This document shows positions 207 through 53,041 of a stretch of DNA of 64,000 nt, piece after piece. The notes beneath the pieces are model-generated. The model worked only from the letters and a program-made list of their open reading frames with translations, searched no databases and had not been told where the DNA came from. Location: NCBI GenBank assembly GCA_018334565.1, contig JAGXLU010000004.1, positions 13,909 to 77,908 of the forward strand, in the 5' to 3' direction. Source of the stretch: Halanaerobiales bacterium. GTDB taxonomy: Bacteria > Bacillota > Halanaerobiia > Halanaerobiales > M55B127. The position numbers and the translations under genes were made by a program. Each line of letters begins with the position of its first letter. Within the stretch, counting starts at the first letter, position 1.

Positions 207-1172
207 TTAATACCTTATTTTTGGATTGAGAAATGCATATGAAATATCAACAAGAACATTTAAAATAACAACAATTAAAGCCACTATTATTACATAAGTA
301 GCTACAACTGGAAAATCACTTTCATACATTGAGTTCAAAAGTAAATTTCCCGCTCCCGGCCACTGGAATATGCTTTCGGTTACTATAGAAAAACCAATTA
401 GCTGTCCAAATTGCAGACCTACCATCGTTATAACTGGTATTAAAGCATTACGTAAGGCATGTTTAAATAAAACAGATTTACCTTTTAGACCTTTAGCCCA
501 GGCAGTCCTGATATATTCTGCTCCAAGTACTTCCAACATTGCCCCTCTTGTAATTCTAAATAATAGGGCCATTTGAAACATACCTAAAGTAAAAGCAGGT
601 AAAATAATATGCCTCCATCCATCAAAGGTAAGTAGACCACTTCTCCAAAAGTTTAAAATCGTTACAGTTTCACCTCTACCTGAAGTTGGCATTATGCCTA
701 AAATTATAGAAAATATATAAATTAATAAAATTCCAACTAGAAATGTTGGTAATGAGATTCCGAGCAAAGAACCCGTCATCAAAAATTTGCTGGCAAAATT
801 TTGGGGGTTTGCAGACACAAAAACCCCTAAACTAATACCTAGAATCACAGCAAAGGCTTCTGCTACAATAGCCAGTTCTAAACTAGCAGGTAATCTTTCT
901 AATATTAAATTTAAAACAGGTACTTTAGTCACATAAGACATACCAAAGTTGCCCTGAAAAGCATTTTTTAAAAAATTAAAATACTGAACATAAAAAGGTT
1001 TATTTAAACCGAGGGCTTCTCTAACTTCAGCCCTCTGTGCCTGAGTGGCATAACGACCTGCCAAAGTCATTACAGGATCACCCAGATATTGAAAAATTAT
1101 GAAGGCTATAAAAGAAACTAAAAACAATACTATAATACCCTGTAATATTCTTCTACCAATAAAAGCGCCCAT
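207..1172 (-). CDS. ABC peptide transporter permease, DppB/OppB-like
   Basis: 321-aa multi-TM ORF. Clear paralog of 57202-58167 (shared blocks LGLNKPxYxQYFNFxKNA, LPTFLxGILLI, RxALRNxxIPVITxxGLQ). Confidence 0.9.
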   Translation of the reverse strand: MGAFIGRRILQGIIVLFLVSFIAFIIFQYLGDPVMTLAGRYATQAQRAEVREALGLNKPFYVQYFNFLKNAFQGNFGMSYVTKVPVLNLILERLPASLELAIVAEAFAVILGISLGVFVSANPQNFASKFLMTGSLLGISLPTFLVGILLIYIFSIILGIMPTSGRGETVTILNFWRSGLLTFDGWRHIILPAFTLGMFQMALLFRITRGAMLEVLGAEYIRTAWAKGLKGKSVLFKHALRNALIPVITMVGLQFGQLIGFSIVTESIFQWPGAGNLLLNSMYESDFPVVATYVIIVALIVVILNVLVDISYAFLNPKIRY

Positions 1173-1214
1173 TATATATACTCCTGCTCCTCTCTTATCT
1201 GCTTAATATCCTTT

Positions 1215-1835
1215 TAATCGGGTAATCGGTAGATGAATTAATTCATCTACCGACCTCCCACACCTCTGTAAAAAAGGTCTCATATACAGCAGTTCAATAA
1301 CTATCTGTAAATCTTTCGATTGTATTAACTTTCATATTACATTCCATGCTCTGAATATTTATTGAGAAATTCCATTTTCTTTTCAATTAAGAAGCTCTAA
1401 TTAAAAGTTGACTGTGTCCTTCATGTTCTATGAAGTAATAACCAAATATATAATTATCGTTCTGTCCTTTAAAGCCAAAATTTCTAATGGCATATAAGTA
1501 CTATGACAGAAACTGACTCTCATCATAATTCTTATTTCAACCACATATCTAATGTGTCCATGAGACCTCAAAGGTTAAGTATTAAGTCTTTTATTTTATA
1601 TATCAGCCACATTTACTGTAATAACTTTCGCACCATAAAAACTTTGGTTTGTTTAACAAACTTATCAAGTTATAGTCAGCCTCAAATGTGATTTAAGTTC
1701 CTCGGACCAAACTTTGTTTTAAACTTCCTTCAGATTTATAATCACCTACGCCGCCCTTTTCATCAGCTATCTCCTAGATCATGTTCGGAATTCGAGTCTT
1801 TCACACTTTAGATTTAATACATACCTGTCAAATTA
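1215..1835 (-). mobile_element. ORF-less group IIC intron-like RNA, probably a relic
   Basis: The minus-strand read starts right after a hairpin plus U-tract. It contains ordered group II blocks: ..CGAATTCCGAAC, AATCTGAAGGAAG, CACATTTGAGGCT, GATAAGTTTG..AAACCAAAGT, GTCATAGTAC, AAGGACAGAAC, a DV-like TTGAACTGCTGTATA..TACAGAGGTG, and the 24-nt palindrome GGTAGATGAATTAATTCATCTACC. No RT ORF. About 3/4 identical by eye to 24113-24440 over domain I. Confidence 0.7.
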
Positions 1836-1842
1836 AAAGAAA

Positions 1843-1864
1843 GCATGGAGCAAGCGCTCCATGC
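1843..1864 (-). terminator. Stem-loop plus U-rich tract after the binding-protein gene (intra-operon terminator/attenuator; intron attachment point)
   Basis: Minus strand reads GCATGGAGC-GCTT-GCTCCATGC followed by TTTCTTTTAATTT, 28 nt after the stop of 1892-3457. Confidence 0.6.
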
Positions 1865-1891
1865 CTGAATACTTATATTCTATATCAATTT

Positions 1892-3457
1892 CTATTTAAA
1901 TGACATTTCTTTAAATACTATCCAAGTATCTGGTCTGGGCACAAAATGAACACTACTGCCCTTATTTATTGCATAGGTATCTTCCTGATAATGAAGCGGT
2001 ATTACAGCCACATTTTCTCTTCCCATCGCCAGCCTATTTAGATCTTCTAATAGGCTTGCTCTGATTGCAGGATCTATAACTTTTTTACTTGCTTCATATA
2101 TTTGATCAGCTACCTGGTCAGAATATCTTGCTCCATTAAAGGTTCCATATCCAGTTTCTTCATCTATTGTATGAAGTAATTTAGAATATGATCTACCAAA
2201 ATCAAAAGTGCCATCAAACCAACCAATTAGATAAAAATCTAATTCATTATTCATGACCTCTTCAAAATATACAGATTTAGGTTTGGCGTCTACCTCCACA
2301 TCTATTCCAACTTTTGAAAGATAGCTTGCCACAGTTGCAGCAATTTGTTCATCCTGTACATACCTGTCATTAGGAGCAGTTAAAGTGATTGAAAATCCAT
2401 CACCATAACCTGCTGCTTCTAGAAGCTCTTTGGCTCTCTTGGGATCATATGGTAACCTTTCAATTTTTTCACTATATCCAGCTGTCGGTGGATCAGGTAT
2501 TTGAGCAGCCGGTGTAGCATGACCAAACATCACTTTGTCTATCAACTCTTCTTCATTAATCGCCATATACATAGCCTGACGTACTCTTACATCAGAAGTT
2601 GGCATTTTATCTTCATTACTCAGACCTAAATAAATAGCCCTTCTTGACGGTCTAGCAATTACTTGTAAATCAGAATTGTTTTCCACTGCCTCATACATAG
2701 TTACAGGTATCCCCTGTAAAATATCCACTTCACCACTACTGATAGTAGCAAGCCTTGTTGAAGCCTCAGTTACAGGTCTTATCTCTGCTTGTTTAACTTC
2801 AGGTACATCATCCCAATATTCTTCATTGGCACTCATTTTTAAATATGAGCCTTTAACCCATTCATCAAAAACATATGGTCCCGTACCAATTGGTTCAGTA
2901 CCCATTTTACCCTGTGATCTTTCCATTGTAGATTCTTTGTCCACAATAAAAACCTGATGCATGTTTTGATCGAAATAAGGGATTGAATCTTTAGTTACAA
3001 TATCAATTACCCATTCATTTCCATCTACAGTACTTACAGATTCTATGGATGACCCAAAAGAAATAAATTCTGATACTTCAGGATTTTCTAGTCTTTCTGC
3101 AAATGTATACTGTACATCTTCCCAGGTAAAATCATTCCCATTGTGGAATTTAACTCCTTTTCTTAGTTCAAATCGCCAGGTAAAACGATCAACTCTTTCC
3201 CAGTTAGTTGCCAAAGCTGGCATTAATTCACCCTTTGTATTCCTTTGTAAAAGTCCTTCAAACATATTACTCATTATCGAAAGATTCGAATCAGCATCTG
3301 AACCGTGTGGATTCATTGTCCTAGGTGGTGCCTCAACAGCAACTGAAACCTGACTATCTTGTGCAAAAACTCCCATACTCCCTATTAATAAAAGACTAAC
3401 AACAATAAATAAAATAAGAATCTTACTACTTTTAATACTCATTACTCTCCTCCTCAT
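1892..3457 (-). CDS. ABC transporter substrate-binding protein, family 5 (peptide/nickel)
   Basis: 521 aa with an N-terminal signal/TM segment. Shares WxFxLxKGVKFHNGxDF, GTGPY and EYWD/DYWG blocks with the paralog at 58231-59745. Confidence 0.9.
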   Translation of the reverse strand: MRRRVMSIKSSKILILFIVVSLLLIGSMGVFAQDSQVSVAVEAPPRTMNPHGSDADSNLSIMSNMFEGLLQRNTKGELMPALATNWERVDRFTWRFELRKGVKFHNGNDFTWEDVQYTFAERLENPEVSEFISFGSSIESVSTVDGNEWVIDIVTKDSIPYFDQNMHQVFIVDKESTMERSQGKMGTEPIGTGPYVFDEWVKGSYLKMSANEEYWDDVPEVKQAEIRPVTEASTRLATISSGEVDILQGIPVTMYEAVENNSDLQVIARPSRRAIYLGLSNEDKMPTSDVRVRQAMYMAINEEELIDKVMFGHATPAAQIPDPPTAGYSEKIERLPYDPKRAKELLEAAGYGDGFSITLTAPNDRYVQDEQIAATVASYLSKVGIDVEVDAKPKSVYFEEVMNNELDFYLIGWFDGTFDFGRSYSKLLHTIDEETGYGTFNGARYSDQVADQIYEASKKVIDPAIRASLLEDLNRLAMGRENVAVIPLHYQEDTYAINKGSSVHFVPRPDTWIVFKEMSFK

Positions 3458-3523
3458 TATTATATACTGTTCATTATATAAAAATATTGCTTTACTTGCA
3501 AACAGAATGAAATATTTTAAATA

Positions 3524-5053
3524 TTATGATAGTGCAAAACTGTCTCTAATTTTATTAATTAAAACATTAGAATCAATAAGTTCTTTTGCCTTCTTAATTT
3601 CTGGATACAATATCCTATCATGTTTGAGAAATCCTATATTTTCTCTGATACATTCATAAATTTTGACTGTGCCTTCTCCTAAATCCTGTTCTGGTTTTTC
3701 TGTTCTGAGATCAACTGCCTGAGCGGCTGTTAATAATTCGATTGCTATGATTTGAGCCACATTATCACAAATTTTATATAAATTTCTGGCACTGATTGAT
3801 CCCATACTCACATGATCTTCCTGATTGGCTGAAGTCGGAATTGAATCGGTACTGGAAGGATTAGCCAGTATTTTGTTTTCAGAAACAATAGAAGCTGAAG
3901 TATATTGGGCTATCATATAACCAGAGTTTAAACCTCCATGTCTAGTCAAAAACATTTCTAAACCATTATTTAAACTGCTGTCTATTAGTTTCGCTGTTCT
4001 TCTTTCTGATACATTACCAATCTCACTAACTGCCATACCTAAATAATCACTACTTAAGGCCAAAGGTTGTCCGTGAAAATTTCCTCCTGAAATAACCTTA
4101 TTCTGCCCGGAAAATATTAAAGGGTTATCAGTAACAGAATTAATTTCCCTTTCCACAATTTCTGTAACATGTGATAAACAATCTCTTGTCGCCCCATGTA
4201 TCTGTGGCCCACATCTTAAAGTATAAGAATCTTGCACCCTTTCATCATCTATATCTACCATTAGATTACTGTTTTTAATCAGTTTTCTTATATTTTGAGC
4301 TGATTTAATTTGTCCGGGATGAGGCCTCAATTTATGAATATCTTCATCAAAGGGTCCTTTTATACCTTTTAGCCCCTCTAAAGAAAGCGCCAATGCTAAA
4401 TCAATTGCGATAATTAGTTTTTTAGCCCTAATGATACTCATGGATTCTAAAGCGGACATCATCTGTGTCCCATTAATGAGCGCTAGACCCTCTTTACTAT
4501 CCAATTTGACAGGTTGAATGTCTTCCTTTTTTAAAGCTGTAATACTATCCACTATATCCCCTTTATATTTGACTTCACCCTTTGCTAACAGGGGTAATAC
4601 CATATGGGCTAATGGTACTAGATCACCACTGGCACCTACAGATCCTTGCTCAGGTATTAAAGGAATAATATCTCTGTTAAACATTTTAATCATACTTTTA
4701 AGTGTATGAAGTTTTATGCCCGAATAACCCTTAGCTAAAGCATTGATACGTAAAAGTATCATTGTTTTAGAGGTCTGGTCATCCAGATAGACTCCCGAAC
4801 CTGCAGCATGACTTACAATCAAGTTTTCCTGTAACTGTATTATTTTATCTTCCGATATTTTTTTGTTACTGAACTTCCCAAAGCCAGTATTGATACCATA
4901 AATTACTTTTTGGCTTTTTATAAATTTTTCTACAGTAGCCCTTGATTTCAAGATATTTTTTTCTGCTTGCTTAGATAAAGCAATCTTTTTATGAGAAAAG
5001 ATTATATCTTCAATTTTATCAATATTCAGATTTTCACCGTTTATATAGTACAA
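3524..5053 (-). CDS. hutH: Histidine ammonia-lyase
   Basis: 509 aa. Aromatic amino-acid lyase family with the MIO-forming ASG in GSVGASGDLVPLAH. Lies in the hut cluster. Confidence 0.9.
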   Translation of the reverse strand: MYYINGENLNIDKIEDIIFSHKKIALSKQAEKNILKSRATVEKFIKSQKVIYGINTGFGKFSNKKISEDKIIQLQENLIVSHAAGSGVYLDDQTSKTMILLRINALAKGYSGIKLHTLKSMIKMFNRDIIPLIPEQGSVGASGDLVPLAHMVLPLLAKGEVKYKGDIVDSITALKKEDIQPVKLDSKEGLALINGTQMMSALESMSIIRAKKLIIAIDLALALSLEGLKGIKGPFDEDIHKLRPHPGQIKSAQNIRKLIKNSNLMVDIDDERVQDSYTLRCGPQIHGATRDCLSHVTEIVEREINSVTDNPLIFSGQNKVISGGNFHGQPLALSSDYLGMAVSEIGNVSERRTAKLIDSSLNNGLEMFLTRHGGLNSGYMIAQYTSASIVSENKILANPSSTDSIPTSANQEDHVSMGSISARNLYKICDNVAQIIAIELLTAAQAVDLRTEKPEQDLGEGTVKIYECIRENIGFLKHDRILYPEIKKAKELIDSNVLINKIRDSFALS

Positions 5054-5117: not shown

Positions 5118-5723
5118 CTATAATATCTTATTTAAACATAAATCCTCTATTCTATCAGCAATTATTTGGCTCTCTCTAACCAGATTTTTAGTTTTTTTAT
5201 TTAGTTTTTCTGTTTTGCTTTTATCTTTAAAAGATGCAGTGTTAATATACACATTGTAGGCTGCCCCTTTTATGCTCGAAATGGCCATCAAAGCAGCAAC
5301 TCCCACATCTGAAATTGCATTTTTATTACCTTTTTGAGCTACATCTTCTGTAATTTCTAAAATGCTTTTGGCAACTTTAATCGTTTCAAGTGGTGTTAAA
5401 GAGGCGTTATATAAAGCAGTTTGAATCGCTTCTTTCCGTTTTTGTATCTCCTGTTCTGTTTGTCTACTCATTTTAAAAGCCTCCATCACTTCGTTAAAAC
5501 TTAGAGCATCTTTATCAATTAATTCTAAAGCAAACTCAATATTCTCTTTTAATTTCTTCATATATTCATTGAGTTCACTGTCTTCTGTAAGGCTAATTAC
5601 CATTGATAATAAAGATGCTGAAAGTGCCGCCGATAAACCAGCCACACTTCCTCCACCAGGAGTAGGTGAACTGCTGGACAACTTATTGTTAAACTCTTTT
5701 AGACTCATATTTGCAAAACTCAT
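5118..5723 (-). CDS. Formimidoyl-THF cyclodeaminase / methenyl-THF cyclohydrolase family protein (FTCD C-terminal-like)
   Basis: 201 aa. The N-terminal SSSPTPGGGSVAGLSAALSASLLSMV is the family signature. Located between hutU and hutH. Confidence 0.8.
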   Translation of the reverse strand: MSFANMSLKEFNNKLSSSSPTPGGGSVAGLSAALSASLLSMVISLTEDSELNEYMKKLKENIEFALELIDKDALSFNEVMEAFKMSRQTEQEIQKRKEAIQTALYNASLTPLETIKVAKSILEITEDVAQKGNKNAISDVGVAALMAISSIKGAAYNVYINTASFKDKSKTEKLNKKTKNLVRESQIIADRIEDLCLNKIL

Positions 5724-5727
5724 TTTT

Positions 5728-7752
5728 TCACTCCTGTTTTATGTTTTTTTTAACTAACCCTTTTATTAACTCACCATCAGCAATATTAGGTATGGTGATT
5801 TGACCTCGACTGGCATTTTTTTGATTCCATTTATCAGCAGTCTCTAAAGCATTTTGGTTTCTTGCCCAGGCCCTTCTGGCAATTCCTCCATTCACATCCC
5901 AGTCTAAAGCGTTTTTTATAATATTGTCTATTCTTTTACTACCATCTAAAACAAGACCAAATCCCCCATTAAATGCCTTCCCAATACCAACTCCTCCTCC
6001 ATTGCTTTCTACAACCATACTCATGCCTCGAGCCGCATTACCTGCAAAACATTGTATCGACATTTCAGCCATTATATTACTACCATCTTTAATATTAGAG
6101 GTTTCTCTAAATGGCGAATCAGTACCTCCAACATCATGATGATCCCTTCCCAACATAATAGGACCCACTTCTTTTTTTCTAATTAACTCATTAAACTTTA
6201 AAGCTATATCTATTCTGCCTTGGGCATCAGCATATAATATACGCGCTTTAGATCCTACAACCAAATCATTATCTTCAGCATCTCTTATCCAGTTATAGTT
6301 GTCTCTATCCTGTGCCCTTCTCTCAGGTTCTATTTCCTGCATAGCAGCTTTATCAGTTTTTCTTAGATCCTCATCTTTACCACTTAAGCATACCCAGCGA
6401 AATGGACCATATCCATAATCAAAACAAATTGGTCCCATTATATTTTCCACATAGGAAGGAAAAATGAATCCCTCTGAAGTATCTGTTTTATTTTTTGCAA
6501 TTTCTTTTACATCAGCGTCAAAAACTGCTTTCATAAAACTATTTCCATAATCCCAAAAATTTGCTCCTCTTGAGACCAACTTTTTAAGAACTTTAAAATG
6601 ACGTCTCAGACTCCTATCCACCTCTTTTTTAAATTTTTGAGGATCATTTTGCATAAGCCGTCTTCCTTCTGCAAAAGTATAATCAACAGGAGTATATCCG
6701 CCCGAGTAAACGGCATGACATGATGTTTGATCTGATAATAATTCAATCTCTACCTTTTCTGTTTCAACATATTCTAACAAATCAACTATATTGCCATGGT
6801 AAGCTATAGAAACTGCTTCCTCCTTATTTTTATACTCCTCTACCCATGCAAATATTTGATTAAGATCAGAAGATTTTTTAGAGAGCCACCCCTGCTCAAA
6901 TCTCGTATCAATTCTAGATTTATCAACCTCTGCAATCACACCGACTCCTCCTGCAATTTCTACAGCTTTTGCCTGTGCACCGCTCATGCCGCCCAAACCA
7001 GAACTAATATATAAATGCCCCTTTAAATTTTTATCTTCTGGTATTCCCAAAAATAATCTACCCGCATTCAGCAAGGTTAGATATGTGCCGTGTACAATTC
7101 CCTGTGGACCAATATACATCCAACCTCCAGCAGTCATCTGTCCATAATTAGCAACACCCATAGCCGCTGCTTTATTAAACCATTTTTCATTATCAAACAT
7201 ACCGATCATTAGAGCATTTGTCACAATTACTCTTGGGCTACTCGGTCTGGAAGGAAATAAACCGAGTGGATGACCTGACTGGACTACAAGTGTCTGTTCT
7301 TCTGTCATAATCTCTAAATATTTTTTTATTAATCTGTACTGCATCCAATTCTGGCATACCTGACCCGATTCCCCATAAGTTACTAATTCATATGGATACA
7401 AAGCAACATCAAAATCTAAATTATTATCAATCATTAATTGGATAGCTTGACCCTCAATAGTATTGGCTTTATATTGATCAACAGGTTTGGCTTTAATTCT
7501 ACCCTGTGGTCTATACCTATATCCATAAATTCTACCTCTGTGTAATAATTCATCTAAAAATTCTGACGCTATCTCTCCATGTAAATGTTCAGGGATATAC
7601 CGTAAAGCATTTTTTAAGGCCAGTTCAATTTGATGCTTATTTAAATTTAACTCTCTTTTGGGTGCTCTTCTTATCTCGTTTTTAAACTCCTTTTTTTTTG
7701 GTAAAGAGTCCGGCAGTTTAACTTTTTGATTGGACTTTTGATATTTAACCAC
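5728..7752 (-). CDS. hutU: Urocanate hydratase (long form)
   Basis: 674 aa. Urocanase blocks GGWMYIGPQGIVHGT and SSGLGGMSGAQ. Starts 3 nt after hutI. Confidence 0.9.
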   Translation of the reverse strand: MVKYQKSNQKVKLPDSLPKKKEFKNEIRRAPKRELNLNKHQIELALKNALRYIPEHLHGEIASEFLDELLHRGRIYGYRYRPQGRIKAKPVDQYKANTIEGQAIQLMIDNNLDFDVALYPYELVTYGESGQVCQNWMQYRLIKKYLEIMTEEQTLVVQSGHPLGLFPSRPSSPRVIVTNALMIGMFDNEKWFNKAAAMGVANYGQMTAGGWMYIGPQGIVHGTYLTLLNAGRLFLGIPEDKNLKGHLYISSGLGGMSGAQAKAVEIAGGVGVIAEVDKSRIDTRFEQGWLSKKSSDLNQIFAWVEEYKNKEEAVSIAYHGNIVDLLEYVETEKVEIELLSDQTSCHAVYSGGYTPVDYTFAEGRRLMQNDPQKFKKEVDRSLRRHFKVLKKLVSRGANFWDYGNSFMKAVFDADVKEIAKNKTDTSEGFIFPSYVENIMGPICFDYGYGPFRWVCLSGKDEDLRKTDKAAMQEIEPERRAQDRDNYNWIRDAEDNDLVVGSKARILYADAQGRIDIALKFNELIRKKEVGPIMLGRDHHDVGGTDSPFRETSNIKDGSNIMAEMSIQCFAGNAARGMSMVVESNGGGVGIGKAFNGGFGLVLDGSKRIDNIIKNALDWDVNGGIARRAWARNQNALETADKWNQKNASRGQITIPNIADGELIKGLVKKNIKQE

Positions 7753-7755
7753 AAA

Positions 7756-9021
7756 TTAGTCCCCCTTTATTTTCCTATTTTTTAGGTCATTATTGAAAAC
7801 TAACTTTCCATTTTTAAAAACTTTTTGAACTAAATTAACACTGAAATTATAAAATAAATGATTATAATGAGGTGCATCAATAATCAACAGATCTGCCTTT
7901 TTGCCTATCTCAATACTGCCAACTTCTTTTTCTTTATTTAAAGCACATGCTGCATTTATTGTTAAAGCATTTATCGCTTCTTCAGGCGACATATTCATAT
8001 ACATTACAGCTAAAGAAAGTAGAAGTGGTATTGACTGAGAATAACTACTGCCCGGATTTAAGTCTGTAGCAAGTGCAACAGGTATACCCATTTCGATCAT
8101 CTTTCTGGCATCAGCATATTCTTCCTGCAAAGAAAATGCAGTTAGAGGAAGAAGAACTGCTATCACATTATTTTTTTTTAAACTTGTTAACCCTTTTTTT
8201 GATGTTTTCAACAAATGATCTGCAGAAACCGCTTTAAGCTCACCTGCTAATTGTGCAGCACCTGTGTTTATAATTTCATCTGCATGTATTTTCAATTCAA
8301 AGTCCAGTTCAGCTGCAAATTTTAATAATTTTTTGGACTGCTGGTAGTTAAAAGCCCCTTCATCACAAAAAACATCACAAAACTCAGCTAAATTTTCATC
8401 TGCTAATAATGGTATTACTTCTTTAATAATATAGTCTACATAACTATCAGAATCATTTTCGTATTCCTTTGGAACTGCATGAGCACCTAGATAGGTAGAT
8501 ATTATATCTATATCCTCTCTTTTATTTAATTGATCCATTACCTGAAGTTGTTTGATCTCTGTCTTTTTATCAAGCCCATAACCGCTTTTACCTTCCAGAG
8601 TCGTAACCCCATAACTTAAGAAGGCATCAAGCCTCTTGCTTGATATTTCTAGTAATTTATTAAAAGAAATTTCTCGGGTGGCCTTGACAGTGCTTAAAAT
8701 ACCTCCTCCTTTTTTTAAAATATCAATATAAGGGATGCCTTTCAGCCGCATTTTGAATTCCTCTGAACGATCACCTGCAAAAACAAAATGAGTATGAGGA
8801 TCAATAAATCCTGGCAAGACAACCTTTTTTTGTACATCTAAGACTTTTGCAAATTTATACTCATTATTTAAAAGCTTGGATTTGCCAAAGTCAACAATCT
8901 TACCATCGTTAATTACTAAATAAGCATCATCAATAACTTCGAGTTCCCCCATTTGAGGACCGACCTTGGGAGAACTATCTCCTACCTTCACAAGTTGAGA
9001 AATATTTTTTATTAAAAGCAT
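7756..9021 (-). CDS. hutI: Imidazolonepropionase
   Basis: 421-aa amidohydrolase with PGFIDPHTHFVFAG and KIHADE motifs. Its start overlaps the formiminotransferase stop. Confidence 0.9.
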   Translation of the reverse strand: MLLIKNISQLVKVGDSSPKVGPQMGELEVIDDAYLVINDGKIVDFGKSKLLNNEYKFAKVLDVQKKVVLPGFIDPHTHFVFAGDRSEEFKMRLKGIPYIDILKKGGGILSTVKATREISFNKLLEISSKRLDAFLSYGVTTLEGKSGYGLDKKTEIKQLQVMDQLNKREDIDIISTYLGAHAVPKEYENDSDSYVDYIIKEVIPLLADENLAEFCDVFCDEGAFNYQQSKKLLKFAAELDFELKIHADEIINTGAAQLAGELKAVSADHLLKTSKKGLTSLKKNNVIAVLLPLTAFSLQEEYADARKMIEMGIPVALATDLNPGSSYSQSIPLLLSLAVMYMNMSPEEAINALTINAACALNKEKEVGSIEIGKKADLLIIDAPHYNHLFYNFSVNLVQKVFKNGKLVFNNDLKNRKIKGD

Positions 9022-9923
9022 TATAAGTCCTCCAATAATCTATTCTCCATAACCTGCTCTTCTTTAAAATCATTTAATCTTAGATAATATTCTGCACTAT
9101 CAAAAAGAGCCTTAGCAGGTAATAAACCGATTATTTCACTTCCCGATATATTCACACCATATCTCTTGGCTTCGATTTTAACCATTTCAAAAGATTGGTA
9201 AAGAGAGGTTTGTGTATAATCAGTCATATTCATAGATACCTGCACAATATCTTTCTCTTTTAAATTAATACCTATTGCTTTAACATATCTTAACCCACCA
9301 TTGGAATTCCTGATTTTTTTAGCAATTTTATTGGCTATTTGAATATCTGAAGTTGCCAGATTAATATTGAATGCAACCAAAGGCATACGTGCCCCTATAG
9401 TTGTAGCACCAGCTGTTTTATGTAATTTAGTGGGCCCATAATCGGGTTTCCACTTTTCTTTTTTTATCTTGTCTTTAAATCCTTCATATTCTCCTCGTCT
9501 AATATCAGCTAGATTCTTCCTTTCTACAGTTTTAGCAGCTTCTTCATAAAGATAGATCGGCAATTTAAATTTATCTGCAGCCTTTTCAGCTACCTCGTTG
9601 GCTAGCTTAACTGCATCTTTCATTTCAACATTTTTTACCGGTGTAAATGGGACAACATCAACAGCTCCCATTCTGGGATGTTCTCCCTCATGTTTGTTCA
9701 TATCTATCAATTCAATTGCTCTTTCCATTGCTTCGATCACGGAATATTTTAACCCCGCATATCCTCCCAACAATGTTACCACTAATCTATTATGGTCTTT
9801 ATCAGCAGAATAATTTAAAAGTTTTACTTCACCATTTTTACGGAATGGTTCAACAATCATTTCAATTTTATCACTATCTCTTCCCTCACTAAAATTTGGA
9901 ATACATTCAAATAATTTGGCCAT
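9021..9923 (-). CDS. Glutamate formimidoyltransferase
   Basis: 300 aa. N-terminus is FECIPNFSEGRD, typical of the formiminotransferase domain. First gene of the hut block. Confidence 0.85.
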   Translation of the reverse strand: MAKLFECIPNFSEGRDSDKIEMIVEPFRKNGEVKLLNYSADKDHNRLVVTLLGGYAGLKYSVIEAMERAIELIDMNKHEGEHPRMGAVDVVPFTPVKNVEMKDAVKLANEVAEKAADKFKLPIYLYEEAAKTVERKNLADIRRGEYEGFKDKIKKEKWKPDYGPTKLHKTAGATTIGARMPLVAFNINLATSDIQIANKIAKKIRNSNGGLRYVKAIGINLKEKDIVQVSMNMTDYTQTSLYQSFEMVKIEAKRYGVNISGSEIIGLLPAKALFDSAEYYLRLNDFKEEQVMENRLLEDL

Positions 9924-23454: not shown

Positions 23455-23985
23455 TTTTTATGTTTTTTAAAACTAAGTTAATTACTTTCTTATCTTGAAT
23501 CTTCCTAGCTACTCTGGACATTAAAATATCATGATTAACTCGGTCAAAAAACTTTGAAAGGTCCATATCTACTATTCAATGTTTCCCGGATTGCATATAT
23601 TCTCTAGCTTAATTTACTACCATCTTCTGGTTGTGCCTCTTTCTGAATTCAAGACTACTGGCTGAAAATTCTTCATCAAATTTCCAGTCCGATTTCTGTA
23701 TCATTGCCAGCTGGTACGCAGGTATTTTCGGAGTTCCGACACCTGCATTCCATCTATTTTAGGAGCAATGTCTTTCTTCTCCATGTATTCCAGTGCTTAA
23801 ATACATTATCCCATAAAATGTGCTCCATCAATTCCATACTTTTCCTCTTGCGACACTTCTCCTATCAGCCGTAACGGATATGTTCAGCACTCCAATAGGC
23901 CCTTCGTACTTCCAGTGCCGGTATAACCCCTGTAGCATTTTCTGTCTTCATTGCATATCCATGTCGATACTCATATGTCCATCTC
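23455..23985 (-). pseudogene. Group II intron reverse transcriptase/maturase, fragmented
   Basis: Frame-hopping translation gives LMEHIL..NVFKALEYMEKKDIAPKIDGMQVSELRKYL and FSASSLEFRKRHNQ..IVDMDLSKFFDRVNHDILMSRVARKIQDKKVINLV (RT domains 0-4). There are several stops and frameshifts. The fingers-to-X/En part is absent. Confidence 0.75.
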
Positions 23986-24440
23986 TGATTTGATGTTCAA
24001 GCCTTCCCTGAATATCGTGCATCCCGGGAGTAACAACTACTTAAAGTAGTTATTGCTATAAATCAGTTAGACTAAAAACTTTGATGTGTTGTGAAACAGT
24101 ATACAGTACTATGACAGAAACTAACTTCTCATGCTAAATCTTATTTAAACCACATATATAATGTGTCCATGAAATCTCACAGCTTAAGTACTAAATCTTT
24201 CATTTCATATATCCGTCATATCTACTGTGATAACTTTCGCACAATAGGGACTTTGTTTTGTATTGCAAACTCATCCAGTTATATTCAGCCTCAAATGTGA
24301 TTTAAGTACCTCGGATGGAAATTTTGCTTTAGACTTCCTTCAGATTCGTAGTCACCTACGACACCCTTGTCTTTAGCTAATTTTTAAATCGTGTTCGGGA
24401 TTCAGGACTTTCCCCCTATAAATTAAGTGCATGCCTGTCA
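23455..24440 (-). mobile_element. Group IIC intron relic (domains I-III plus degraded, 3'-truncated RT ORF)
   Basis: Starts on the minus strand just after the csp terminator. Blocks: TATAGGGGGAAAGTCCTGAATCCCGAAC, CAAGGGTGTCGTAGGTGA, GAATCTGAAGGAAG, CACATTTGAGGCT, GGATGAGTTTGCAATACAAAACAAAGTCC, GTCATAGTAC, CAGGGAAGGCTTGAAC. RT-like reading frames follow. Confidence 0.8.
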
Positions 24441-24450
24441 AAAAAACAGT

Positions 24451-24499: not shown

Positions 24500-24706
24500 T
24501 TACATTTTTTCTACATTTTCAGCTTGAGGACCACGCTCAGCTTCAACTATTTCAAATTCTACCTCTTCGCCTTCTTCTAAACTTTTATAGCCATCTTCAT
24601 TAATAGCAGAAAAATGTACAAAAACATCTTCTTCAGAGTCTTCCCTTTCAATAAATCCAAAACCTTTTCTAGAATCAAACCATTTAACTTTTCCAGTATA
24701 AATCAT
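24500..24706 (-). CDS. csp: Cold-shock protein (CspA family)
   Basis: 68 aa. [25 protein letters not shown] (RNP1/RNP2). Confidence 0.95.
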
Positions 24707-49379: not shown

Positions 49380-49862
49380 AGGAATGATGTATCCGTGACT
49401 ATATTTTGTAATTATATCAAAGATTATTTACATAAAGCTAGTAGAAAAATAATTGATTTAGCAATTGAATACAAAGTATCTACTATCATAATTGGAGATA
49501 TAAAGAATATTAACCAAGGTAGCAAACTTAAATCTTTTGTTCAAATACCAATTCAATGATTAGTAGAGTTAATTGAGTACAAAGCTGAATTAGAAGGTAT
49601 TCAAATTGTTAAAATCAACGAAATCCATACATCAGGTTGCAGTTCTATAGACCTAGAAAAATTAAATGAATTTAACTATAATAACTCTAGAAGAATTCAA
49701 GAGATCTGTTTAAAACAAGAAATAAACTAATCAATGCTAATATCAATGGTTAATTAAATATAATGAGAAAATACTCAAAAGATAAATTTATTCCCAAAAT
49801 GCTAAAACAGATTAGGGATAATAAAGTTGTGGACACTCCTTCAAGATTAAGGGTATCCTAAT
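49380..49862 (+). pseudogene. IS605-family TnpB C-terminal fragment
   Basis: IKDYLHKASRKIIDLAIEYKVSTIIIGDIKNINQGSKLKSFVQIPIQ-stop-LVELIEYKAELEGIQIVKINEIHTSGCSS... with several stops. The N-terminal half is absent. Divergent to the TnpA fragment. Confidence 0.7.
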
Positions 49863-51116: not shown

Positions 51117-51310
51117 ATCCCCTACTAAATATTATATTTTCAAAACACATCAAAATGGTTAAAAGATAAATGATTAATCATCTACTTTCTTTGCACAACT
51201 CTGTATATAAGGATCTCGTATACATTGGTTCAATAATTATTTATAAATCCTTCAATTATATTAACTACCTTATTACCGAATTGTAGCCGATAAAGCCTCG
51301 CCTATGTTAA

Positions 51311-51331: not shown

Positions 51332-51424
51332 TTTTAGTTTTTAATCAACTTGAAAATTAAGCCTTTAAACACGAATCCCTTTTATGATATAACACATTTA
51401 ATAATTGATATTAAGGCGTTTTTA

Positions 51425-51815
51425 ATGATGAATACCTACAAAAGTACAAGATACGCAAAGTTCCTTTTAAACTATCATTTTATATGGATACCTAAATATA
51501 GAAAACATATTTTAGACAATCCTGAAATCAAACAATTAACTTGAGATACTATTAATGAATTAGCTGATACACATAATTTTGAAGTATTAACTACTTACTG
51601 AAATGATGCCAGACCATATACACCTTTTTTATATCAGCTTTGCCTAAGTATTTTTCCAGTAAGCTAATGAACATCATTAAAGGTACTACTGGAAGAAGTA
51701 TATCAAAACACTTTCCAAAATTGAATATTAAAGGTTCTGTATGGACTAGAGCTTATTTTGTGGCCACTGCTGGCAATGTTAGTTCAGAAACTATTCAACA
51801 CTATATTGAAAATTA
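51425..51815 (+). pseudogene. IS200/IS605 TnpA (Y1 transposase), disrupted
   Basis: MMNTYKSTRYAKFLLNYHFIWIPKYRKHILDNPEIKQLT-stop. Other frames then give MPDHIHLF.. and KLMNIIKGTTGRSISKHFPKLNIKGSVWTRAYFVATAGNVSSETIQHYIEN. Confidence 0.8.
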
Positions 51816-51827
51816 AAGGTGATTAAT

Positions 51828-51905: not shown

Positions 51906-52720
51906 GTAGTTAGGCACCGTCAAGCTGTCGTGTCTATAGGCACTTGCTCACCTACAACTTCCCTCACGACTTACCAGCCTTTGACTCAATAATCCAGTCC
52001 ATTAACCCCTGTTCTTCATGATATTATCAACTGCGTTTTAAAAATCCAATCGCACCTGCTTATATATTATTACTCAGGTCACAGTGTTTCTGCCCTGTCT
52101 TACCTACGGTTTTTCTTCCCCTTAAGCACCATCCGGCAAACTCACTTTCTATCAGTGTCTAAACTACTTAACAGTTAATCAACCACTCTTATCTTGTCTC
52201 CAATTTCGGATAGCATCAGTACCCTTCACTCCAGTTGGCTTTTTCCTCGGAACAACTATCATCACTACTATGGTAACGTCTGAATACTGATGTAGCTTTA
52301 CTTCAGTTTTCCCACTAAAGGTTATACCTCCGCTTACTCAATCCAGTCTGGTTTGAGACTCATCATCATCACCATCTTGCAGTCATTTTGACCCTAAGCA
52401 CACCCATCAACTCAACATACTCCTATGGTCTATTGGACTTCCCCATTGTGTGGGAAGGTCGCCGTTGATGAATGCCACCCCTGGTTCATATATTATTCCG
52501 GACTAACTGCTCGCCTCAGACTCTTCAGATTCCACCTCACAGTGAACACCCTGTCCTTGTCGGCTTCATGTACCGTCATTTATAAACTTAGGCTGAAGTT
52601 TGTGTTCTCCGTTTACTCACCCATTTCGTCTGTAAATGCCACAATATCTCAACCATATTTTCCATACTTCCAGCACAGATAGAATTTTCATCTACTATTG
52701 GTATAGACTACGAGACACAC
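51906..52720 (-). mobile_element. Group II intron 5' portion (domains I-III and start of IV), 3'-truncated
   Basis: The minus strand begins GTGTGTCTCGTAGTCTATACC, 11 nt after a hairpin plus U-tract. It contains AGCCGACAAGGACAGGGTGTTCACTGTGAGGTGGAATCTGAAGAG and many complementary segments. It is visibly GC-richer than its flanks and has no credible ORF. Confidence 0.6.
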
Positions 52721-52731
52721 CACGACAAAAA

Positions 52732-52753
52732 GAGCCCCGATTGCTCGGAGCTC
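52732..52753 (-). terminator. Terminator-like hairpin plus U-tract immediately upstream of the intron 5' end
   Basis: Minus strand reads GAGCTCCG-AGCAAT-CGGGGCTC followed by TTTTT. Confidence 0.5.
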
Positions 52754-53041
52754 AAGGAGTAGTAGCACATATGAAAATTTGTTTCCCATTTAGTTTTAGT
52801 GAAAATATTAACTGTAGAATGGGGGTTAATAAAAATATCAATATCCTTACTAAAACTTTTTTACTGTAAAATAATTATAGCAATGAAATATGTAATAAAT
52901 GTGTAATAAATGTAAAAAAATATGTTAATTCAGCAATCTTGATGTTTTGGTAATTATTTAATCAAAATTATTATTAAAAAATGAAATTAACTAAATGATT
53001 TGATTTATAATTATTCTTCTTTTATAATTCCTATCTAATAT

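Follow-up and report, generated by a model that had tools for sequence, protein, structure and literature searches.

Within an ABC transporter operon of the window (the whole 64-kb stretch of DNA analysed here), a gap of 720 nt separates, read on the minus strand, the stop of a binding-protein gene (1892) from the start of a permease gene (1172). The question raised by this locus is what occupies a gap of that length, and whether its content is alive or dead. An earlier note on this DNA had proposed that the gap is not plain spacer and is of group IIC intron origin, and had considered for it both a fossil and a stand-alone ribozyme of the HYER type. The primary study of HYERs is reportedly that of Liu et al., in Science in 2024 (doi 10.1126/science.adh4859). 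HYERs are defined as IIC introns that lack an ORF and act as hydrolytic endonucleases (PMC11754743, PMC12990946). Interest in ORF-less introns as compact programmable nucleases is recent. Bacterial ORF-less group II introns were long thought to be rare (PMC4424553).

The reading preferred here, with a probability of about 0.8, is that the gap holds a non-autonomous IIC intron that would have been reverse-spliced behind the hairpin of the operon with a reverse transcriptase acting in trans, and that is now catalytically dead and simply co-transcribed.

Insertion Site and Extent of the Element

The features of the locus, in the order of transcription, are the following.

1892..3457 (-), upstream gene, SBP_bac_5 substrate-binding protein of a peptide/nickel-type ABC transporter
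1841..1866 (-), terminator/attenuator-type hairpin AGGCATGGAGC-GCTT-GCTCCATGCTT, with a T-rich tail TCTTTTA to 1834
1217..1833 (-), ORF-less group IIC intron derivative, 617 nt
207..1172 (-), downstream gene, BPD_transp_1 ABC transporter permease

The hairpin GCATGGAGC-GCTT-GCTCCATGC with its T-run was the sole terminator-like site in 1100–1960, where 0.2 would be expected by chance, and the insertion point lies 9 nt past its stem. Orthologues of the binding protein with 79–82% identity were detected in Halanaerobiales MAGs and in a Logan assembly. The gene order hutU-FTCD-hutH-SBP-permease-permease-tilS is common to the window and to the loci L012, L013 and L014, and at these loci the SBP–permease spacer measured 105–109 nt and was intron-free (3/3 loci). 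The hairpin and its tail are conserved in the three spacers, e.g., as GCATGGAGC...GCTCCATGCTTTCTTATATAAAAAAG in L014.

The ends of the element, at 1833 (5') and 1217 (3'), were set by intact relatives, described below, and by these empty sites. After removal of 1217–1833 the flanks of the window read CTTTCTTTTA/TAAAAGG (here and below a slash between flank and element, or at the empty site, marks the junction), which aligns without offset with the intron-free spacer of L014, CTTTCTTATA/TAAAAAAG. Since the flanks rejoin in register, the element measures 617 nt and begins 9 nt after the stem. Positions 1217–1833 of the window are an insertion, and its placement 3' of a terminator stem-loop, as claimed in the earlier note, was confirmed both by the singularity of that site and by the empty sites of the three syntenic genomes.

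Identity and Domain Anatomy

The element reads AUUUGACAGG ... UUACCCGAU and was delimited as a group IIC derivative by nhmmer and BLAST matches to its family; the IIC-like sequence blocks that had been listed for the gap were all present on its minus strand. The Rfam model RF02001 (group-II-D1D4-3) matched 1580–1751 (-) with 78 bits, above its gathering score of 32 (E=7e-14 with the entire window searched), and gave further matches in the window at 24189–24361 (-) with 125 bits and at 52368–52546 (-) with 32 bits. With RF00029, the DV/DVI model, nothing was obtained at E<=10 in a 900-nt search around the element, and a search of 111 nt gave 10.1 bits and E=8 at 1217–1294 (gathering score 40). 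The Rfam check that had been proposed was therefore positive for domain I and negative for domains V/VI. Domains III, V and VI and the 3' end ...CGAU were collinear with those of a full-length IIC intron of Clostridium botulinum. The idea that the shared blocks come from another repeat family was discarded, as the covariance-model match and the collinear arrangement with a genuine IIC intron decide against it.

The largest ORF in the gap encodes 62 aa on the opposite strand, as had been stated, although it is not the only one, as there are two shorter ORFs, one of 47 aa on the minus strand and one of 40 aa. None in the gap reached the size of an intron-encoded protein, and tblastn with the IIC LtrA of C. 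botulinum gave no match in the element; the claim that a reverse-transcriptase ORF is absent was thereby confirmed. As domain IV carries no reverse transcriptase/maturase ORF, the element is classed as an ORF-less derivative rather than as a complete retroelement. With respect to the features of class IIC, the window copy showed the domain I match and the insertion past a terminator, and lacked the DV match, the GUGYG terminus and the ORF. Domain V of this class is a hairpin of ~34 nt that carries the catalytic triad, a 2-nt bulge and a distal helix. Judged by its sequence, it is a real, degenerate ORF-less IIC intron derivative. Its parts are as follows.

1829..1833 (-), 5' terminus AUUUG; GUUUG in the intact relatives, GUGCG in the C. 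botulinum intron, canonical GUGYG
1580..1751 (-), domain I core, including AAUCUGAAGGAAG; RF02001 match
1464..1507 (-), domain III, GUCAUAGUAC ... GCCA-loop-UGGC ... AAAGGAC; collinear with GGUCAUAGUAC...GGGAAGGAC of C. botulinum
1296..1458 (-), domain IV, ORF-less, a 13-bp closing stem round several short hairpins (RNAalifold on the intact copies)
1262..1293 (-), degenerate domain V; triad CGC changed to UGC, distal helix lost, 3' strand CGUAUG changed to U-UUUU
1219..1260 (-), domain VI, with a palindrome inside and the branch-point A in an A/A 1x1 internal loop

The departure of the 5' end from GUGYG was thereby upheld, with a different terminus: TTGAC, previously taken as the end, lies two bases further in than the true end AUUUG. 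The perfect DNA palindrome reported at the position of domain VI is present and is 28 nt long (TCGGTAGATGAATTAATTCATCTACCGA, 1226–1253) instead of 24 nt. The RF00029 alignment runs as far as ...CCUACCCGAU. Class IIC introns have a bulged branch A 7–8 nt from a 3' end ...AY; the window copy preserves the 3' end ...CCCGAU, with a candidate branch A 7 nt from the end, opposite another A.

A full-length, ltrA-bearing IIC intron from the C. botulinum plasmid NZ_CP063960.1 served as comparator. Its 5' end follows a terminator as TTTTCTTTTAT/GUGCGCCCAGCAUG..., its DV is GAACCGCCGUAUACCGAACGGUACGUACGGUGGUGUG and its 3' end UCCUACUCGAU. With this intron and those of Oceanobacillus iheyensis (O.i.I1) and Bacillus halodurans (B.h.I1) the element shares the RF02001 domain I core, the DIII motif GUCAUAGUAC...GGAAGGAC, the DV basal helix GAACYGCYGUAU/…UACRG.GGUGUG, a DVI followed by ...C(C/U)CGAU, and the insertion a few bases past a Rho-independent terminator hairpin and T-run (PMC4748821). 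It differs from them in having no intron-encoded protein, in beginning with AUUUG (GUUUG in its family) and not GUGYG, in having G.A for G.U opposite the triad G and, in the window copy, in having lost the DV distal helix.

ORF-Less Relatives in Other Genomes and Metagenomes

Scanning of representative genomes with a 21-mer of domain I yielded L001, a contig from the MAG of an uncultured member of the Halanaerobiales. Its element is 85% identical to the window copy over the full length, contains no ORF, and matched RF02001 with 126 bits and RF00029 with 36.0 bits. Another contig from the genome scan, L002, had no Rfam match and no BLAST similarity to the element and was treated as a chance match.

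Metagenomes were scanned with a 21-mer of DV/DVI, which gave nine further contigs. One of them (L004) is the window's own locus in another sample, 99.4% identical over 4389 nt, and copy-1-type loci, i.e., those with the type of copy found in the window, were represented in the metagenome scan by this single locus. The remaining contigs correspond to three insertion sites with distinct flanks: A (L001, L009, L007), B (L003, L005) and C (L008, L010, L011). At all three the layout is a hairpin, a T-run and GTT/GTTTGACAGG ... CCTACCCGAT/TT. The full-length ORF-less relatives measure ~621–625 nt and are 83–85% identical to the window copy; intact elements are located at 3000–3620 of L001, 5723–6343 of L003 and 8904–9528 of L008. 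Elements A and B differ from each other by 3–7 nt in 624 (~99% identical), C is ~95% identical to both, and 92–98 positions separate the window copy from these three. The identity of ~99% between A and B indicates that the family was recently mobile. No matches to the element were obtained in a scan of viral contigs, and with blastn against plasmids the similarity to IIC introns of Clostridium (~72%) was confined to domain I, the search being of use only as the source of the full-length comparator.

The 5' end of the family is GUUUGACAGGCAUG, with U and not G at position 3. Its domain V is GAACCGCUGUAU-ACG-AGAUC-CGU-AU-GUACAGAGGUG, in which one C-G pair has become U-A by compensation and the G.U usually found opposite the triad G is replaced by G.A. 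Domain IV consists of ~160–205 nt of short hairpins (~205 nt in the intact elements), and its region in the window copy is ~85% conserved with L001. The DIII loop carries the self-complementary AAAUUU. In the distal DIII stem of the window copy, GUUA/UGAC has changed to GCCA/UGGC; one pair is altered on both strands, and in another a substitution on a single strand preserves pairing.

State of the Window Copy

In the window copy the first G is replaced by A (AUUUG vs GUUUG in the intact copies). Its domain V folds into the basal helix and a 14-nt open loop (-5.1 kcal/mol, z -0.9, about that of shuffled sequence), whereas that of L001 retains the bulge and the distal helix (-9.6 kcal/mol, z -2.35); the failure of the distal helix to pair, pointed out previously, was thus corroborated by both the fold and the RF00029 score, 10.1 bits vs 36.0 bits in L001. 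The RF02001 score is likewise lower, at 78 bits vs 126 in L001 and 125 in copy 2, a related intron of the same window treated below. At the base of DVI, CCUCCU has become CCGAUU, and the altered loop yields the palindrome; the branch A, a true bulge in L001 (7 nt from ...CCCGAU), faces an A in the window copy. The DV basal helix, the J2/3-like AAGGACAGAAC and the 3' CCCGAU are retained. The U at position 3 and the G.A opposite the triad G also occur in the intact copies and are thus lineage features and not decay, so that, of the departure from GUGYG, the change G1 to A can be read as decay and the rest is partly a trait of the family.

Over 342 aligned positions of DI–DIII, the window copy had 41 unique substitutions, compared with 12 for copy A and 20 for copy 2, which is pseudogenised (relative-rate test, p=8e-5, under the assumption that the shared ORF-less architecture groups the window copy with A). 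Across the element, GC-to-AT changes (49) exceeded AT-to-GC changes (18), and the GC content of the gap is 32%, against 31% for the window.

Compensatory changes affect a stem of domain I, the stem of DIII and a hairpin of DIV, which implies that part of the divergence arose under structural constraint. When the 92 substitutions of the window copy were placed on the RNAalifold structure of the intact copies, 31 pairs were broken vs 29.7 expected; copy C seemed constrained in this test, but that result is circular. When the MFE structure predicted from copy A alone was used, neither of the two sequences departed from the null. For the domain I pairs defined by Rfam, 37 of 47 were canonical in the window copy and 40 in copy A, against 33.9 +/- 2.2 at random, which is not significant. 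The pair-breaking statistics were therefore used as evidence neither for nor against decay. Their lack of significance, like the compensated helices, cautions against regarding the entire RNA as free of constraint during all of its past.

The window copy is most likely a dead relic in which key catalytic features are missing; the suspicion that it may be a fossil is borne out by the lost 5' G, the destroyed DV distal helix and a substitution rate above that of its relatives. The simplest reading is that it would have been a functional RNA for some time and would then have died in place.

A working ORF-less intron, spliced from the operon transcript and perhaps mobilised by a reverse transcriptase/maturase encoded elsewhere, would account for the six-domain layout, the DV basal helix, the DVI hairpin and the 3' GAU, as well as for the compensatory changes in several helices; its close relatives were recently mobile, and trans-acting proteins that serve ORF-less introns are on record (PMC4424553). 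It is nevertheless unlikely here, given the change of G1 to A, the destruction of the DV distal helix and bulge region, the altered first base of the triad, an RF00029 score of 10 bits, a branch A that is no longer bulged, the single copy-1-type locus in the metagenome scan and the lack of an intact protein gene within the window.

The other active form to be weighed is a HYER-type stand-alone ribozyme, that is, a hydrolytic endonuclease acting in trans on DNA or RNA and guided by a short exon-binding sequence. Cleavage by HYERs is sequence-specific, with a recognition site of ~6 nt. The element resembles HYER1–6, by description only, in being IIC-derived, naturally ORF-less and ~0.6 kb long (~620 nt vs 637 nt for the published HYER1; PMC12990946, PMC11754743) and in having a short palindrome in the DIII loop: its AAAUUU is self-complementary, and HYER1 and HYER5 dimerise via a DIII palindrome (PMC12990946). 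Hydrolysis, however, uses the same DV-centred active site, which appears to be broken in the window copy, the pattern and rate of substitution look neutral, and the loop palindrome is AT-only and could be due to chance. For the window copy this proposal of the earlier note found no support and is very unlikely; it is retained only for the intact relatives elsewhere. The window copy would then be of a known kind, the HYER-type ORF-less IIC intron, but a fossil of it, in keeping with the preferred reading of a dead, co-transcribed intron.

Polymorphism and Possible Role in the Operon

Between the window and L004 the element differs by 1.13%, the flanking third codon positions by ~0.94% and all coding sequence by 0.51%. 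These values bear on co-option by the host, by which the element would serve as a long structured intercistronic leader that alters permease expression, for instance by providing an internal promoter or an RNase site or by hindering read-through. Such a role could be suggested by its position, in the sense direction, after a conserved attenuator-type hairpin and before the ribosome-binding site of the permease and by its maintenance in a second sampled population (L004), and IIC-attC introns with outward promoters are described (PMC3001079). Co-option is, however, quite unlikely, as the element is as polymorphic as third codon positions, promoter-like sites do not exceed chance (5 found vs 3.9 +/- 2.0 expected) and three related genomes run the same operon without the element. 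A catalytically dead and simply co-transcribed intron remains the preferred reading.

Other Intron Remnants and Proposed Origin of the Element

Two further remnants of group IIC introns were characterised in the window.

23471..24444 (-), copy 2, a related IIC intron behind another terminator hairpin, truncated at its 3' end
51157..51290 (-), degraded 3' piece of a member of the window copy's family, covering the last part of DIV, then DV and DVI, 82% identical by BLAST to L001 501–614

The domain I of copy 2 (24104–24444) is intact-looking and sits behind the terminator of a cold-shock gene. Copy 2 shows 90% identity to L001 over 347 nt and ~81% to the window copy over 356 nt (~24100–24445), the similarity ending at GTCATAGTAC; the sharing of sequence blocks with 24113–24440, noticed earlier, is thus real. 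Its frameshifted reverse-transcriptase remnants (23471–23713) matched Pfam RVT_1 with 27 bits and, in tblastn, the LtrA of C. botulinum with 42% identity over 81 aa (E=1.5e-14). The fragment at 51157–51290 was recovered by nhmmer (E=1.3e-17) and gave no match to RF00029.

The 64-kb window contains remnants only and no intact reverse-transcriptase ORF, and a search for a full-length parent with the remnants of copy 2 returned only fragmentary group II reverse transcriptases. An active enzyme could be encoded elsewhere in the genome, outside the 64 kb. In the account of Simon et al. (2008) given in PMC4424553, bacterial ORF-less introns co-reside with related protein-encoding introns. The window agrees with this pattern in holding an ORF-less copy together with a related reverse-transcriptase-bearing intron (copy 2), and departs from it in that copy 2 is frameshifted and truncated and no helper is visible in the 64 kb.

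The history proposed under the preferred reading starts from a group IIC intron that would have lost its protein gene and become non-autonomous. As is usual for IIC introns, it probably entered the operon by reverse splicing just downstream of a terminator-type hairpin, here the conserved SBP–permease stem-loop and T-run, while a related full-length intron provided the reverse transcriptase in trans; a degraded intron of this sort survives at 23471–24444. The insertion would have interrupted no reading frame and left both the hairpin and the ribosome-binding site of the permease undisturbed. The damage to the 5' G, to domain V and to the branch site is predicted to have abolished splicing, mobility and any HYER-like cleavage, so that the 617 nt would now ride unspliced in the read-through transcript, probably drifting towards the AT-rich composition of the host. 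The intercistronic gap can now be annotated as a probably inert mobile-element scar, and the genome appears to hold a small graveyard of IIC introns behind terminators.

Prospects of the Intact Family

The intact, recently mobile family in related contigs is a more interesting by-product of this analysis than the window copy. With a bulged branch A, intron-like ends and recent movement, the intact relatives seem to behave like introns or retroelements. The window copy may tentatively be regarded as a dead member of a living family, whose intact elements would be active protein-less IIC retroelements or HYER-type ribozymes; this is possible, rather less than an even chance being given to it. 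Such an active family could possess an unusual core, formed by GUUUG, the G.A at the triad, a structured DIV of ~205 nt and a self-complementary DIII loop. By analogy with HYER1, that loop could allow the intact elements to dimerise. Residual activity of the window copy itself is a much less likely extension.

The intact Halanaerobiales relatives are thus candidates for asking whether a G.A at the triad and a GUUUG 5' end support catalysis, and how protein-less IIC elements move, and the dead window copy offers a natural loss-of-function comparison. Among the metagenomic contigs, L006 fuses the 5' flank of site B to the 3' flank of site A, a chimera of the kind expected from a repeat.

Intact relatives and the probable intron relic

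Three intact ORF-less IIC elements were found outside the window, at three different sites, each located behind a terminator:

L001 (site A), 3000-3620, (-): intact ORF-less IIC element
L003 (site B), 5723-6343, (+): intact ORF-less IIC element
L008 (site C), 8904-9528, (-): intact ORF-less IIC element

The elements were ~621-625 nt long, two of them being ~99% identical, and had GUUUG as 5' end, a bulged branch A and a catalytic triad in which the G faces A (G.A). They are candidates for an active family, either non-autonomous or of the HYER type (hydrolytic endonucleolytic ribozymes, ORF-less derivatives of group IIC). In a further metagenome contig, L006, the element had the 5' flank of site B on one side and the 3' flank of site A on the other; this contig is an assembly chimera, because the element is a repeat.

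The terminal loop of domain III (DIII) carried a self-complementary hexamer in the relic (window 1478-1487) and likewise in L001, L003 and L008; it reads AAAUUU in the majority of copies, with AAUAUU at site B. A DIII palindrome has been reported as the dimerisation route of HYER1 and HYER5 (PMC12990946). The hexamer could also be a chance product of an AT-rich loop.

In domain VI of the relic, four departures from the family consensus, namely C to U and one inserted U in the loop, and GA in place of UC at the 3' base, each helped to perfect a 28-nt DNA palindrome (window 1226-1253). These changes look more like DNA-level correction of a quasi-palindrome than like selection on the RNA.

The hairpin and T-rich tail between the binding-protein and permease genes (window 1834-1891) were shared by four related genomes, the window's own and the three with the intron-free spacers of the syntenic operons L012-L014. 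Their conservation suggests that the hairpin is a working intra-operon attenuator, older than the intron.

Other group II intron and IS remnants in the window

Additional remnants were located as follows:

23471-24444, (-): second IIC intron, following a terminator that belongs to a cold-shock protein gene (24500-24706)
51157-51290, (-): decayed, isolated 3' fragment (DIV end, DV, DVI) of the relic's family
~52200-52760, (-): fragment of domain I, from a different group II intron
51350-51816 and 49395-49559, (+): split IS200-like Y1 transposase in two adjacent short ORFs, and weak OrfB_IS605 (TnpB) fragment

The second IIC intron started with UUUUG and had a well-preserved domain I (RF02001, 125 bits), a frameshifted and truncated reverse-transcriptase ORF, and no DV or DVI left. 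The decayed 3' fragment was 82% identical to L001, with the triad changed from CGC to CAA, and was adjoined by IS200-type remnants. The different intron's fragment was GC-richer (47%), scored 32 bits with RF02001, just at threshold, and 21 bits with RF01998, was directly preceded by a terminator-like hairpin (GAGCTCCGAGCAATCGGGGCTC + TTTTT), and showed neither ORF nor DV. The split transposase matched Pfam Y1_Tnp (22 and 51 bits), with a weak OrfB_IS605 (TnpB) fragment alongside; these pieces look like a degraded IS200/IS605 element separating the two intron fragments.
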